From: a bacterium
GTDB lineage: Bacteria; Patescibacteriota; Saccharimonadia; CAILAD01; GCA-016700035
Reading direction: 5' to 3'
Assembly (NCBI GenBank): GCA_020854115.1
Contig: JADZGC010000017.1
Span: 1 to 61,574, forward strand
Length of the DNA stretch: 61,574 bases
Under the pieces are notes generated by a model. The model saw nothing but the letters and a program-made list of their open reading frames with translations, did no database searches and was not told the origin of the DNA. The position numbers and the translations under genes were made by a program. Shown here one piece after another: positions 47,871 to 53,500 of this stretch (within the stretch, counting starts at the first letter, position 1; each line of letters opens with the position of its first letter).

Positions 47871-48375
47871 ATCACGCACCCACTGAAAGGGATGCGCACA
47901 AAGCCATGGAGCCGACATTTCGACTTACCATCTGGCACAGGAATGGTCTGCCAGAGAAACCTGCAGTCGGGCTCGTTCGGGCTTCCTCTGCAGGCGACCG
48001 ATGCCTAGTCACTCAGACCGTTCCCGAAGCACAGCAATTCGCTCTTGCATCGGCGATAGCTACCGCAAGCACTTCTGTAAGCGGCACCCGCTACCTTGAA
48101 GGGGCGATTAACTCCATTCAGTTCGATTCGAGAGCCCTTTCTCGCAGAGATCTACCGAGACGCTCACGGCCATGTCGAAGCGCCCCTGATTAGCCTCGGA
48201 AACAACTTCGTCGACAAGGTTCTGCAGATTGCATCTCTCGAAGCTGCCATTCTTCCAGCCAGCAGATTTTGCTGACCTCCGCCCGATTTCCTTCCCCAGC
48301 AGAAAATCGGGCTCTTTATATACCCGCCCTTCGTCTTACTAACAACTAAAAAAGCCCCTGACAGGAGGCTTTTTT
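47871..48375 (+). ncRNA. Candidate ~0.5-kb structured RNA (or small-protein mRNA) between rplC and rpsJ
   Basis: Bounded by the promoter at 47836 and the terminator at 48348. Visibly GC-richer than its flanks. Several hand-found helices: CCTGCAG...CTGCAGG (47961-47995), CCGATGC...GCATCGG (47998/48047), CCCGATTT...AAATCGGG (48282-48311). The only ORF (95 aa, 47906-48193) lacks an RBS. Confidence 0.3.
48348..48375. terminator. Bidirectional intrinsic terminator after rpsJ and after the plus-strand unit
   Basis: AAAAAAGCCCCTG-ACA-GGAGGCTTTTTT: a GC stem with one bulge, an A-run 5' and a T-run 3'. Confidence 0.7.
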
Positions 48376-48742: not shown

Positions 48743-49924
48743 CTACTTCGTAATCTTAGTTACGACACCGGCGCCAACCGTGCGGCCACCTTCACGAATA
48801 GCGAAGCGGAGACCTTCATCCATGGCGATTGGAGCAAGCAACTTAACGTTTACATTGATGTTATCACCAGGCATAACCATCTTCATGCCCTCAGGAAGTT
48901 TAACTTCACCAGTTACATCAGTGGTACGGAAGTAGAACTGGGGCTTATAGCCATCGAGGAATGGGGTGTGGCGTCCGCCTTCTTCCTTGGTCAAAACATA
49001 CACTTCAGCTTCAAACTCGGTATGCGGGGTGATAGAACCTGGCTTAGCGATAACCTGACCGCGCTCGATCTGAGTGCGCTCAATACCGCGGAGCAAGAGA
49101 CCTACATTGTCACCAGCCTGTCCTTGGTCAAGGAGCTTACGGAACATTTCTACACCAGTAACAACAGTCTTTTGGTTGTCCTTAATACCAACGATTTCAA
49201 CTTCTTCGTTCACCTTGATGATACCCTGCTCGATACGGCCGGTAGCAACTGTACCACGACCCTTAATCGAGAATACGTCTTCGATTGGCATCAAGAATGG
49301 CTTATCAAGATCGCGCTCTGGCTCTGGGAGGAACTCATCCATAGCCTTCACGAGCTCCATGATTGAGTCTTCAGCGGTAGCATCGCCTTCAAGTGCCTTG
49401 AGTGCTGAACCCTTGACGATTGGGCAGTCGCGAGCAAACTCGTTCTTTTCGAGCAAATCGCGGATTTCTTCTTCTACGAGCTCAGCGATTTCTGGATCAG
49501 CCATGTCCATCTTGTTCATGTAGACAAGAATGCGTGGTACGCCGACTTGGCGAGCAAGCAATACATGCTCACGAGTCTGAGGCATTGGACCGTCAGCAGC
49601 AGATACTACAAGGATAGCACCGTCTACCTGAGCTGCACCGGTAATCATGTTTTTTACGTAGTCAGCGTGACCTGGCATGTCAACGTGGGCGTAGTGACGC
49701 TTTTCTGACTCGTACTCTTGGTGAGAGGTAGCGATGGTGATACCGCGCTCGCGCTCTTCTGGAGCCTTGTCGATCTCGTCGTAGTTAATTGGCTTGTTTA
49801 CATCTGAAGGCAATTTCTTCGCCAAAACATGCGTAATAGCAGCTGTAAGAGTTGTCTTCCCGTGGTCAACGTGACCCATGGTACCGACGTTAATATGTGG
49901 TTTATCGCGCTTGAATTCTGCCAC
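48743..49924 (-). CDS. tuf: Elongation factor Tu
   Basis: GTG start with AAGGAG 7 nt upstream. [28 protein letters not shown]. Confidence 0.98.
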
Positions 49925-50127
49925 GAAAAATCTCCTTATCTTTTTATAATACCGATCATTACATTGGTGTCATACGACAATGTCTATGGTGCGCGCTAGG
50001 ACAAGAAAAACCGCCCCACCACGCAGGACTGGTCCATTGTATCGAGAAAGTCGCACTTTGTAAAGAGATCTATAACGGGGTATCGCCGAGATTCAAAAAA
50101 AGCTACCTGACAGTAGTGCCTGATAGC

Positions 50128-50595
50128 TTAAAGCTGGGATACCATTTCCTTCACGGATCGCCGCAAATAATGATGAGTCCGAGCGCGGAAGATCTCGAGT
50201 CGAAGATAATTCCAAATCCAGATCAACCAAGCAAGGATAGACCCAGCGCCGACGAAATGAACGCCAACAATCGCACTTGGCCTATCCATTGGTGTCATAT
50301 CAAGGAAAAGCCCCAGGCAGAAGAAACCGACTAAAACAACAAGGCCGGAGAGAAGCCTACACGGCCAATCCCACAACACAAAGTCACGATCATAGTGTCT
50401 ACGCTCGACATCTGAGTACGAAAGGTATGATTCGTACTCTAAAACTCTCATGAGCTGTTTTTCGGCGATACGAAACTTGATGGCCCATACAGGTCGCTTG
50501 AGGCAATTGAGGGTTCGACACTGACCCTTCTTGGGTTTCGGCGCCCTCTTCGATGCATCAGGACGATTGAAGTGCCAGTGCGGAAACGGCATCAT
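50128..50595 (-). CDS. Hypothetical two-TM protein (155 aa), third gene of the fusA-tuf insert
   Basis: ATG 50595 overlaps the upstream TGA (ATGA at 50592-50595). The basic N-terminus (KRAPKPKKGQCRTLNCLKRP) is followed by TM helices LLSGLVVLVGFFCLGLFL and VHFVGAGSILAWLIWIW. No family recognised. Confidence 0.5.
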   Translation of the reverse strand: MMPFPHWHFNRPDASKRAPKPKKGQCRTLNCLKRPVWAIKFRIAEKQLMRVLEYESYLSYSDVERRHYDRDFVLWDWPCRLLSGLVVLVGFFCLGLFLDMTPMDRPSAIVGVHFVGAGSILAWLIWIWNYLRLEIFRARTHHYLRRSVKEMVSQL

Positions 50596-51050
50596 CGTGC
50601 CGCCCGCCAAGGCAATGGCTGCGCTTGACTATACTGTGTGGACCGGCGCATGCGGGCATTCATCTGCAAAGATGTGCGCGCAACTCTACGTGAGAAACCA
50701 GCTCGACGAAGGTATTTGCGACTAGTTTTCAGATCCCGGCGGTAGGCTCGATAGCCGAAGAGCAATTGCTGTTGACCAGCGATTTGCCACTCTTCTACCA
50801 GCAGCGTGCGCAAACGTCTCGAGAAGATCGATGGCACAACACCCCACAGAACACGCCATGCGACGTTTATACCCCAGAGTGTGCCGACCAACTGCATGAC
50901 TACAGCTACAGCGTCGGGCTGCCCTGCTACAAAATACATACACGATGCAAAGATCGTGATCATTCCATAGCCCCAGAAGCAGGCTTCCCCTTCATCAGAC
51001 CAGGGGCCGATGAATCGCAATGTAGCGCGAAAATGGCCGCAAGGCATCAT
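50592..51050 (-). CDS. Hypothetical two-TM protein with Arg-rich tail (152 aa)
   Basis: The ATG is preceded by a perfect AGGAGG (51055-51060) that overlaps the upstream stop. TM helices MITIFASCMYFVAG and VVMQLVGTLWGINVAWRVLWGVV. Confidence 0.55.
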   Translation of the reverse strand: MMPCGHFRATLRFIGPWSDEGEACFWGYGMITIFASCMYFVAGQPDAVAVVMQLVGTLWGINVAWRVLWGVVPSIFSRRLRTLLVEEWQIAGQQQLLFGYRAYRRDLKTSRKYLRRAGFSRRVARTSLQMNARMRRSTQYSQAQPLPWRAAR

Positions 51051-51059
51051 GACACCTCC

Positions 51060-51299
51060 TCAATCGCCGTAATAACCATGCGTTTTGACATGTTCTATTC
51101 CGCCAAATAATCGAGTTGATTGACGTGAAAGATGATTGCATCCGCAGTCAGGGCAATGAGACATCTTCCAGGCCGTGGCAGCGTCTGCGTAATGGTAGCC
51201 CATCAGCCCGTTATCAAGCCTCGTAAAAACCCTAACACGCCCACATCGTGTGCACTCTATCCGTAGAGTATTAGCGTCTCTCGGTGGATCTGTAGGCAT
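51060..51299 (-). CDS. Small four-Cys zinc-ribbon protein (79 aa from ATG 51299; 85 aa if TTG 51317)
   Basis: CTRCG...(32 aa)...CPDCGC. First gene of a three-gene coupled unit. Confidence 0.5.
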   Translation of the reverse strand: MPTDPPRDANTLRIECTRCGRVRVFTRLDNGLMGYHYADAATAWKMSHCPDCGCNHLSRQSTRLFGGIEHVKTHGYYGD

Positions 51300-51341
51300 G
51301 CGCTTCTTTCCCTTCAAGGTACAGTGCTGTCTTTATATACC

Positions 51342-51369
51342 AAAAAGCCCCTAATCACAAGAGGCTTTT
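51342..51369 (-). terminator. Intrinsic terminator after fusA
   Basis: The minus-strand RNA reads AAAAGCCUC-UUGUGAUUA-GGGGCUUUUUGG: a 5-bp G/C stem including one G-U, plus A/U extension and a U-run. Confidence 0.6.
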
Positions 51370-51388
51370 ATGGATATTGGAAAACTAG

Positions 51389-53500
51389 CTATTCTGTAGC
51401 TGCAGCAGCTCTTGGGTTCTTGCCAATGAGATCTTCGGCGATGTTACGCGGGACTTCTGCGTAATGATCAAACTCCATTGAGTAGTTCGCGCGACCCTGT
51501 GTCATTGAGCGCAAGCTGGTTGCATATCCAAACATCTCTGAAAGCGGCACAAAGGCGTCGATAATCTTCGCACCGGCGCGATCCGACATTTGATCAATAC
51601 GACCACGCTTGGAGTTGATGTCACCCACGACGTCACCCATGAATTCTTCTGGTGCCGTCACTTCGACCTTCATAACTGGCTCGAGGATCACTGGGTCAGC
51701 CTTGCGCACACCTTCTTGGAGTGCTATCGATCCGGCGATCTTGAAAGCCATTTCTGAGGAGTCTACTTCGTGGTATGAACCATCATAGAGCTTGGCCTTC
51801 ACGTCTACGACCGGATAGCCGGCGAGTACACCATTTCCCATTGCTTCTCTAATGCCCTCGTCAACCGGCTTGATGTATTCCTTAGGAACCACACCACCGA
51901 CGATGGCGTTTTCAAACTCGTAGGTTGGCTTGTCGCCCTCAATATCTTCGACATGCACCAGCGGGCTGATCTCCAACCACACATGACCATATTGACCACG
52001 ACCACCAGATTGACGTACGAACTTACCCTCAACCTGCACGGTCTTACGAACGGTTTCGCGATACGCTACTTGTGGCTTACCAACATTTGCCTCCACCTTG
52101 AACTCGCGCTTCATGCGATCAACCAGCACTTCGAGGTGAAGCTCACCCATCCCCGAAATCAAAGTCTGACCGGCCTCATTGTCGGAATTGACACGGAAGG
52201 TAGGGTCTTCTTCGGCAAGTCGCGAAAGCGCCATGCTCATCTTCTCTTGGTCGGCCTTGGTCTTTGGCTCAACGGCAATCTGAATAACTGGCTCTGGGAA
52301 GGTAATTTGTTCGAGAAGCACGCCATGCCCAACATCACACAGTGTGTGTCCAGTCATAGTGCCTTTAAGTCCCACTGCCGCAGCGATTTCGCCAGCATAG
52401 ACTTCTTGTACTTCTTCTCGGTTATTTGCATGCATTCGGAGAATGCGACCAATGCGCTCTTTCTCACCAGTAGAGCTATTGAGGACGTACGAGCCTGATT
52501 TGAGCGTACCGGCATAGACGCGAAAGAAGCAGAGCTTACCAACAAATGGGTCGGTAGCGATCTTGAAAGCTAGACCAACAAATGGTGCATCGTCGGCGAC
52601 CTTAACCAATTCTTGTTCTCCAGTCTTGGTTGACTCGGCAAGCGGAGCATTGATGTCGAGTGGGTTTGGTAAGTAATCAACAACGATATCGAGCAATTTT
52701 TCGACGATCACACCTCGTCCATCACCACCAGAAACAATGAAGAATTCACCGGTCAATACGCTCTTACGAATACAGGCCTTGATTTCATCAATCGTCAGAT
52801 CTTCACCTTCCAGATACTTCTCCATAATCGCGTCATCTGCTTCAACGGCAGCTTCGATAAGGTGGTTACGATAACGCTCGACCTTTTCTTTCATATCCTC
52901 TGGGATATCAATCTGCTGGAGTTCTTTGTCAGCGTAGTCGTTGTACTGGTAAGCCTTCTGCTCAATAACGTCAACGATACCATTGATCTCTTGCTCGAAG
53001 CCAATTGGCAGGTGGATTGGATAGGCTTTCTTCGTCAAGCGCCCATGAATTGACTCAAGACTCTTATAAAAATCACCACCAGTCTGATTGATCTTATTAA
53101 TAAAACAGATACGTGGCACGCCGTATTTGTCGGCCTGGCGCCATACGGTCTCAGACTGTGGCTCTACGCCCATCTTGCCGTCGAAGACTGTCACTGCGCC
53201 GTCGAGTACGCGCAAGCTTCGCTCTACTTCTACCGTAAAGTCGATGTGACCAGGAGTGTCAATGATGTTGATGCGCTTCCCATTCCAGAAACATGTCGTG
53301 GCAGCTGAAGTAATCGTAATACCACGCTCTTGCTCTTGCTCCATCCAGTCCATGGTTGCTTCACCTTCGTGCACTTCACCAATCTTATGTGTCTTACCAG
53401 TACGGTACAGGATTCCTTCTGTAACGGTTGTCTTCCCTGCATCGATGTGGGCAATGATGCCGATATTACGTGTATCTTCGAGTGAATATTCGCGAGCCAT
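51389..53500 (-). CDS. fusA: Elongation factor G
   Basis: [23 protein letters not shown], and 703 aa with the full five-domain length. Confidence 0.98.

Follow-up and report, generated by a model that had tools for sequence, protein, structure and literature searches.

Why do three small open reading frames (ORFs) stand between fusA and tuf, the genes for EF-G and EF-Tu, in a genome of the Saccharibacteria? The locus lies in a stretch of 61,574 nucleotides (the window: contig 17 of the assembly, JADZGC010000017.1, taken whole), which belongs to a 0.79-Mb, 99.5% complete genome whose nearest relatives are metagenome-assembled genomes of Candidatus Saccharibacteria. Saccharibacteria are ultra-small epibionts, and a large share of their genes has no assigned function. 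An initial annotation of the window regarded the three frames as a probably acquired triad and, from the pairing of a zinc ribbon with two small membrane proteins beside EF-Tu, as a possible toxin/immunity or phage-defence module; it gave correctly the coordinates and motifs of the ORFs, the terminator of fusA and the two overlaps (AGGAGG with the first stop, then ATGA) that chain the frames. Comparison with related genomes leads to a different picture. Two of the frames, ORF2 and ORF3, are a pair inherited in place, under purifying selection and changing very fast, and it is moderately probable that the locus encodes a lineage-specific, cytoplasm-facing inner-membrane complex from an autonomous mini-operon, with a species-specific zinc-ribbon subunit. 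The three frames, which share the minus strand with fusA, tuf and all the signals in between, are:

51060-51299 (ATG start, 79 residues) or 51060-51317 (TTG start, 85 residues), minus strand: zinc-ribbon (Zn-ribbon) ORF with the pattern CTRC-x29-CPDC
50592-51050, minus strand: ORF2, 152 residues (151 from the second ATG at 51047), stop codon TGA
50128-50592, minus strand: ORF3, 154 residues from the ATG at 50592, 155 from 50595

A Fast-Changing Gene Pair Kept in Place

How widely is this arrangement shared? The order fusA-ORF2-ORF3-tuf recurs in the other two genomes of the genus (G001 and G002), in a species known from six metagenomic contigs (sp4; L006-L011) and in a more distant lineage (sp5; L047); the pair therefore occupies the fusA-tuf slot of at least five Saccharibacteria species. 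The triad as such is not conserved as a set, as these four other lineages have ORF2 and ORF3 only. In the closer species ORF2 and ORF3 are 36-49% identical to the window proteins (ORF2 shows 39-49% across four species), and EF-Tu is 98-99% identical; sp5 falls to 21-36%, with its ORF2 copy at 36% and a divergent ORF3 homolog. About 40 columns of ORF2 and 27 of ORF3 are invariant across four species, which also have in common the TGATG stop/start overlap between the two genes and the MPFPxW start of ORF3; in sp5 a 2-nt gap takes the place of the overlap.

Nei-Gojobori estimates of the proportion of non-synonymous differences (pN) are 0.35-0.44 for ORF2 and 0.38-0.47 for ORF3, about half the proportion of synonymous differences (pS; ~0.8 and 0.77-0.88, respectively). 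Because pN lies below pS, ORF2 and ORF3 are protein-coding and under purifying selection, which accords with the earlier view of both as genes. The constraint is loose by the standard of the neighbors: tuf and fusA have dN/dS ratios of 0.003-0.024, and the non-synonymous rate of the pair is 20-100 times theirs, figures that give the strength of selection only roughly since the synonymous divergence (dS) of ORF2 and ORF3 is saturated. The pair thus combines inheritance in place with very fast change.

Could the genes have arrived from outside? The initial annotation proposed acquisition from a patch that looked richer in GC, Arg and Trp than its surroundings. The amino acid bias is real: the triad proteins contain 10-13% Arg against 5.8% in the proteome, and 4.5% Trp against 1.2%, which places them in the 96th-99.6th percentile. 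The GC enrichment does not hold up, as the triad (0.516, with the genome averaging 0.495 +/- 0.033) stands at the 78th percentile, and only ORF2 alone is modestly high (0.547). On this GC content the foreign-DNA reading of the triad was rejected, and nothing in the composition points to recent acquisition. Neither in the window nor at the relatives' loci do integrase genes, repeats or defence-island genes surround the pair.

A Probable Autonomous Transcription Unit

The signals that would serve the small operon are:

51343-51369, minus strand: intrinsic terminator of fusA, 10-bp stem, 7-nt loop and U-run; -15.3 kcal/mol, z -3.2
51332-51360, minus strand: putative small-operon promoter, -35 TTGTGA (51360-51355), 17-nt spacer, -10 TATAAA (51337-51332)
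51055-51061, minus strand: Shine-Dalgarno sequence of ORF2, GAGGAGG, overlapping the TGA of the Zn-ribbon ORF (51062-51060)
50095-50129, minus strand: intrinsic terminator that closes the small operon and overlaps the stop codon of ORF3; -12.5 kcal/mol, z -2.5, followed by U7

That fusA ends in a terminator of its own, as annotated, is borne out by the fold of its hairpin and U-run, and an equivalent hairpin is found in all five lineages with the ORF2-ORF3 pair. As read from the sequence, the -35 element of the small operon sits inside the loop of this terminator, and nowhere else in the genome does a terminator enclose a promoter in the manner of this composite (51332-51369). (The rpsJ and rpsG terminators have the same AGGGGCTTT arm as the fusA terminator, without an embedded promoter.) The pattern TTGnnn-N17-TATA(A/T)A is kept in sp4, G002, G001 and sp5; when the spacers of these four lineages are aligned, they present a hairpin with a TTGnnn loop, N17, TATA(A/T)A, GCAC...GTACC and a ribosome-binding site of the AAGGAG type, in this order. 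We infer that 51332-51360 would act as the promoter of the small operon.

In the window, 4-7 nt separate GAGGAGG from the two ORF2 start codons downstream (51050 and 51047), and relatives have AAGGAG or GGGAG in the same position. The ORF3 start overlaps the ORF2 stop as ATGA (start at 50595) or TGATG (start at 50592), and the conservation of this stop/start overlap suggests that ORF2 and ORF3 are made together. On the best reading, the small operon would be transcribed autonomously within the fusA-tuf gap, from its own promoter to its own terminator.

Two Predicted Membrane Hairpins

What kind of proteins would this unit produce? ORF2 begins with a predicted N-terminal amphipathic helix (HxRAxLRF), continues into a hairpin of two transmembrane (TM) helices and ends in an Arg-rich cytoplasmic tail of three helices, with a predicted net charge of +16 and the motif YLRxxGxSRKxAR. 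Its AlphaFold2 model, confident although built from only 11 sequences, is all-helical (predicted local distance difference test, pLDDT, 86), with six helices at 3-14, 19-41, 45-76, 78-93, 98-116 and 121-142. ORF3 consists of a basic N-terminal domain of ~75 residues (+7), a two-TM hairpin (Kyte-Doolittle segments 76-103 and 106-127) and a helix at the C-terminus; the AlphaFold2 model of ORF3 is of moderate confidence (pLDDT 73) and shows long helices beside a basic N-terminus that is disordered. Judging from the distribution of charges and TM segments, both termini of both proteins are predicted to be cytoplasmic, with external loops of only ~5-10 residues. Of the earlier description of ORF2 as a two-TM protein with an Arg-rich tail, the tail stands; the TM segments are only marginally hydrophobic in the window species, while they are plainer in homologs and form long helices in the model.

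The claim that ORF2 and ORF3 match no described family has withstood every comparison, as Pfam, NCBIfam, PADLOC, PHROGs, PDB and fold searches all gave nothing significant. Pfam, NCBIfam and PHROGs returned sub-threshold noise only for the three proteins (generic zinc-ribbon, PPO1_DWL, OrgA_MxiK and LapA entries), sequence and profile searches of the PDB gave nothing, and Foldseek found nothing below E 0.3 with the ORF2 and ORF3 models against the PDB or with the ORF2 model against BFVD. Foldseek also aligned 38 columns with one chain from the Tse6-EF-Tu complex, at E 9.7, a match dismissed as noise.

A Rare Family and an Intermittent Zinc Ribbon

Is ORF2 confined to the fusA-tuf gap? A word-based search of 5.8 billion proteins retrieved only ORF2 and ORF3 themselves and, for ORF2, one species. 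A profile search with ORF2 reached further, to 18 clusters among 1.84 billion representative proteins (E 1e-73 to 1e-4). Among genomes, the family is present in 7 of 401 of the class, or 4 of 186 genera. Its signature comprises an N-terminal HxRAxxRW helix, two TM helices, WxExGxxPLF and YLRxxGxSRKxAR, motifs that are kept across families and orders; the window ORF2 carries H6, R8, A9, R12, W88, G118, R121 and A124, all invariant over 11 members. Surveys of 60 genomes from the order and 401 from the class turned up no ORF3 outside the genus of the window and sp5. The distant ORF2 homologs stand alone, with no ORF3 adjoining any of them, and the question whether the triad, or ORF2, always abuts tuf is answered in the negative: other members of the family sit elsewhere. 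Four of the clusters (P0006, P0008, P0011 and P0012) follow a DUF4012 gene and converge on rplT-rpmI-infC, and further homologs adjoin uppS, fpg or an M50 peptidase gene. The DUF4012/rplT-rpmI-infC site was seen in L078, L080, L091, L092 and L093.

Some of these homologs are longer. Clusters P0010, P0012, P0013, P0014 and P0020 have ~90 extra N-terminal residues with the pattern GYExCxxCxWKN...CPxCR, and the ORF2-family copy of G104 has a fused N-terminal zinc ribbon as well. The spacing of the knuckles in the fused ribbons, CxxC-x27-28-CPxC, is like the x29 of the Zn-ribbon ORF in the window. Among the four clusters at the DUF4012 site only P0012 is fused, so that gain or loss of the ribbon has taken place inside a single positional group. 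ORF2 is thus the old and mobile element, ORF3 its genus-level partner, and the zinc ribbon an intermittent addition. The pattern resembles a Rosetta-stone (fusion/fission) pair, in which the ribbon would be separate in the window and fused to an ORF2-type N-terminus in other genomes; it differs in that homology between the separate and fused ribbons is not statistically established (E 0.06) and in that the separate form is found in one species only.

Two further observations concern individual loci. In L087 (G076), the fused zinc ribbon is apparently broken by one in-frame TAG after the first knuckle. In L046, the gene that follows the fused homolog P0010 (positions 1361-2245) encodes a protein starting MQQLTLEDVKSLAEFEGDPCISIYLPT, which may resemble the bacterial release-factor-like (baeRF) families.

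Is the Separate Zinc Ribbon a Gene?

The Zn-ribbon ORF of the window, for which the ATG at 51299 is a more plausible start than the TTG at 51317, contains the two Cys knuckles (CxxC...CxxC) of the generic zinc-ribbon class and is predicted to bind zinc. It is missing in G001, G002, sp4 and sp5, where fusA and ORF2 are only ~65-105 bp apart; in the window, ~270 bp bearing the frame are inserted directly after GTACC, which places the frame within the 5' leader of the ORF2-ORF3 transcript. Could this insertion be just that, an extended leader or a regulatory upstream ORF, with the two-gene operon as the functional unit? We regard this as possible but doubtful, and the data speak on both sides. 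Besides its absence from four sister lineages, the frame has no homolog in 5.8 billion proteins (word-based search), 41 related genomes or the JGI metagenomes; its codon score of -0.19 is below the range of real genes and below that of 79% of spurious ORFs; the gene finder made no call of it in four conspecific contigs, and these contigs are identical over the frame, with no variation to read. All of this weighs against a real Zn-ribbon subunit, as does the likeness of the ORF to the fused domains, which is weak and mostly cysteine-driven: against the fused-domain profile it aligns over both knuckles, with an hhalign E of 0.06. On the other hand, a CxxC-x15-40-CxxC pattern is found in just 12 of the 2131 open frames of 70-110 residues in the genome (0.56%), the frame is the best-scoring of the six and ends exactly on the Shine-Dalgarno sequence of ORF2, fused ribbons occupy the same N-terminus in five remote clusters and G104, and a similar Zn-ribbon ORF (BLASTP E 2e-4) is present in the fusA-tuf slot of G006. 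The leader, moreover, shows no excess of RNA structure (z -0.56) and no Rfam match, and a structured RNA in its place was rejected on these grounds. Mainly because of the fusion/fission pattern in the ORF2 family, we consider it probable that the Zn-ribbon ORF encodes a genuine ORF2 partner. The link to ORF2 proposed in the initial annotation is thus plausible in so far as distant homologs carry a fused ribbon, while codon support for the ORF itself is absent.

The ORF resembles known zinc-ribbon proteins in layout: the N-terminal domain of MqsA (TIGR03830), Zn_ribbon_8/FmdB and Lar likewise have two CxxC/CPxC knuckles ~29 residues apart within ~80 residues. It differs from them in scoring far below their cut-offs; indeed, its best Pfam and NCBIfam scores against curated zinc-ribbon families are 12-19 bits, against cut-offs of 23-62. 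Its sole relatives of any meaning are the N-terminal domains fused to ORF2-family proteins and the one ORF in G006, and the likeness is weak in both cases. Two specific identities were rejected, namely an MqsA-type antitoxin (14.1 bits for TIGR03830 against a cut-off of 61.8, and no helix-turn-helix) and a ZAS-type anti-sigma factor (SHCPDC in place of HxxxCxxC, no Pfam anti-sigma match for the ORF or the fused homologs, and no adjoining sigma gene). The best six-frame match, in G028 (E 2.5e-4), is spurious, as it lies antisense inside rpsE. Separate small zinc-ribbon ORFs were noted in the fusA-tuf gap of two other genera, in L040 (G006; ECKVCG...CPDPDC, 95 residues) and in L069 (G020; CKDCG...CTAC, 113 residues).

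The fusA-tuf Junction as a Slot

Why should small genes be found at this position at all? The flanking genes and the signals before tuf are:

51389-53500, minus strand: fusA (EF-G)
50036-50064, minus strand: putative tuf promoter, TTTACA-N17-TACAAT
49990-50025, minus strand: conserved hairpin of the tuf 5' leader, -20 to -22 kcal/mol
48743-49924, minus strand: tuf (EF-Tu), starting ~200 bp past ORF3

An interrupted junction, which the initial annotation contrasted with a normally contiguous fusA-tuf, turns out to be common in the order: among 35 genomes surveyed, the gap is 130-230 bp in nine and mostly 650 to >1400 bp otherwise. The longer gaps hold unrelated small two-TM ORFs, the content of which differs between genera. 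Whatever fills the gap, all 25 genomes examined from the order have TTTACA-N17-TAnAnT ahead of tuf, at the same place in L035-L077 as in the window. With a promoter of its own throughout the order, tuf would form a transcription unit separate from fusA, and the junction a permissive slot; this independence explains why fusA and tuf are so often split. The best reading of the position between EF-G and EF-Tu is an insulated permissive slot with no functional tie to EF-Tu. A hairpin with a U-rich loop recurs at the same place in the tuf leader in most of 19 genomes (single-sequence folds); its stems differ between genera (GGCAAU/AUUGCC, GACAUA/UGUGUC and GGUCAC/GUGACC), and in family f1 an additional outer stem has compensatory changes. 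The hairpin has no Rfam match and could be an mRNA-stabilizing or regulatory leader.

Compared with the canonical str operon (rpsL-rpsG-fusA-tuf), the window retains fusA followed by tuf on one strand; what sets the Saccharibacteria order apart is the fusA terminator, the tuf promoter and leader hairpin, and the open junction between them. Hypervariable slots and small islets likewise hold promoter-gene-terminator units of small membrane proteins between conserved flanks; unlike these, the genus of the window keeps its unit in place over five lineages, by vertical descent and with a composition that is not foreign.

The slot has other residents. In sister genera g4 (L035, L036, L037, L038 and L041) and g5 (L040), and in L042 (G010), it is filled by another conserved two-TM protein of 156-234 residues, which carries W(K/Q)WQRF(I/L)DGDF and is acidic at its C-terminus; in g4 and g5, which belong to the window's own family, it has 156-170 residues and the motif reads WKWQRFIDGDF. 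Its architecture and position are like those of ORF3, and hhalign comparisons for g4 and g5 gave E 0.094 and 0.005 with a probability of at most 7%, leaving homology unproven; ORF2 has no similarity to this protein or to ORF3. Pfam found nothing in the fused ORF2 homologs or in the slot residents of other genera. In genus g10 of family f6 (L059, L060 and L063), the gap (724-765 bp) lacks any long ORF on the strand of fusA and tuf; its several overlapping short frames suggest GC-rich sequence, and a non-coding RNA or a gene on the opposite strand may be located there. Elsewhere in the window, the 0.7-kb rpsJ-rplC spacer contains an opposite-strand gene (47906-48275, plus strand) with the motif RLTIWHRNGLPEK, which is a 123-149-residue ORF in G001, G002 and L047 and is split over two frames in the window near 48120-48140, by a frameshift or an assembly error; the conserved RLTIWHRNGLPEK ORF argues against a structured-RNA reading of that spacer.

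A Probable Cytoplasm-Facing Membrane Complex and Its Alternatives

How might the products work together? ORF2 and ORF3 would be helical-hairpin proteins of the inner membrane, with both ends and their basic, Arg-rich domains in the cytoplasm, and may assemble into a membrane hetero-oligomer with its active surfaces on the cytoplasmic side. Since relatives of ORF2 carry fused ribbons at the N-terminus, the separate Zn-ribbon ORF would most likely be a real soluble subunit, possibly docking on the N-terminal cytoplasmic helix of ORF2. As for a role, our best guess is an adaptor or regulator, tethered to the membrane, which would bind nucleic acid or another cytoplasmic partner via the Arg-rich domains. 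Several points, in addition to those raised against the Zn-ribbon ORF and to the saturation of dS, count against this model: in the window species, the TM segments of ORF2 reach a borderline Kyte-Doolittle maximum of 1.58; the membrane topology, the hetero-oligomer and the docking of the ribbon are predictions; and the biochemical role is a guess.

The proposal of the initial annotation, a toxin/immunity or abortive-infection system in which a two-TM effector is checked or triggered by the Zn-ribbon protein, possibly sensing EF-Tu, now looks unlikely and has found no positive support. Small two-TM proteins with charged tails and a small zinc-ribbon partner are generically compatible with it, the ORF2 family is rare and patchy like accessory genes, and ORF2 and ORF3 evolve fast; yet none of the three proteins matches any PADLOC family at E <= 1 or any PHROG, viral contigs hold no relatives, and the weak TIGR03830 score makes no antitoxin of the ribbon. 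Nor does the pair sit in a mobile or defence-island context, being syntenic in five lineages with promoter, terminator and overlap conserved. It also counts against the proposal that the would-be zinc-ribbon partner is absent in four of the five lineages, and ORF3 beside all distant ORF2 homologs; adjacency to tuf, to which the earlier proposal gave meaning, is a property of the slot and not of the genes. A holin/antiholin-like pair, or a membrane-permeabilizing remnant of a prophage lysis cassette, is more improbable still. Class II holins (pinholins included) have two TM helices, N-in/C-in topology and a highly charged C-terminal tail. The predicted topology and charged tails of ORF2 and ORF3 would be compatible with this pattern, and tandem Met codons mark both starts in the window species; but relatives start MT, so that the MM start is not conserved, the proteins are twice as long (~150 residues) with large structured, helical cytoplasmic domains atypical of holins, no endolysin or phage gene lies nearby, PHROGs and BFVD give no match, and the pair is stably inherited beside core genes, outside any lysis-cassette context.

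Might the two genes instead be marginally useful passengers, fast-drifting orphans with no specific conserved activity, tolerated in an insulated slot that strong transcription units flank? Their extreme divergence (39-49% identity, against 98-99% for EF-Tu), their atypical codon usage and the unrelated small TM ORFs that the slot carries in other genera would all suit such a fate. We nevertheless hold it to be rather unlikely: a pN about half of pS, the invariant columns over four species, the conserved stop/start overlap, promoter and terminator, the family motifs of ORF2 kept across families and orders, and a confident ORF2 model from so few sequences all speak against it. A more specific role might be read from genomic position, in that the two largest positional groups of the ORF2 family adjoin translation operons, fusA/tuf in five lineages and infC-rpmI-rplT in four; the family and its ribbon could then be a Saccharibacteria-specific, membrane-tethered factor of the translation apparatus, for example one whose Arg-rich cytoplasmic domains keep ribosomes, mRNA or a translation factor at the membrane. 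The placements beside uppS, fpg and the M50 peptidase gene do not fit, and the association could be due to chance or to safe harbor near strong terminators; we give this idea little credence. A cytoplasm-facing complex of ORF2 and ORF3, joined in one species by a zinc ribbon, thus remains the reading that we prefer.

What the Locus Means

No new defence system emerges from this locus, and the link to EF-Tu as a sensor of abortive infection is unsupported. A more general caution applies to the clade: in Saccharibacteria, a position beside tuf is not to be read as functional. The locus explains instead how the fusA-tuf junction comes to be interrupted, as an insulated slot where small genes settle and diverge. 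The finding is real but modest: it adds an uncharacterized family to a variable locus of a type already known. ORF2 defines a new, rare and clade-restricted family of membrane proteins with a clear motif signature, and its fusion and fission with a zinc ribbon yields a testable prediction of a partner; besides that caution, the locus is of value chiefly as a clearly bounded object on which expression and interaction can be tested.

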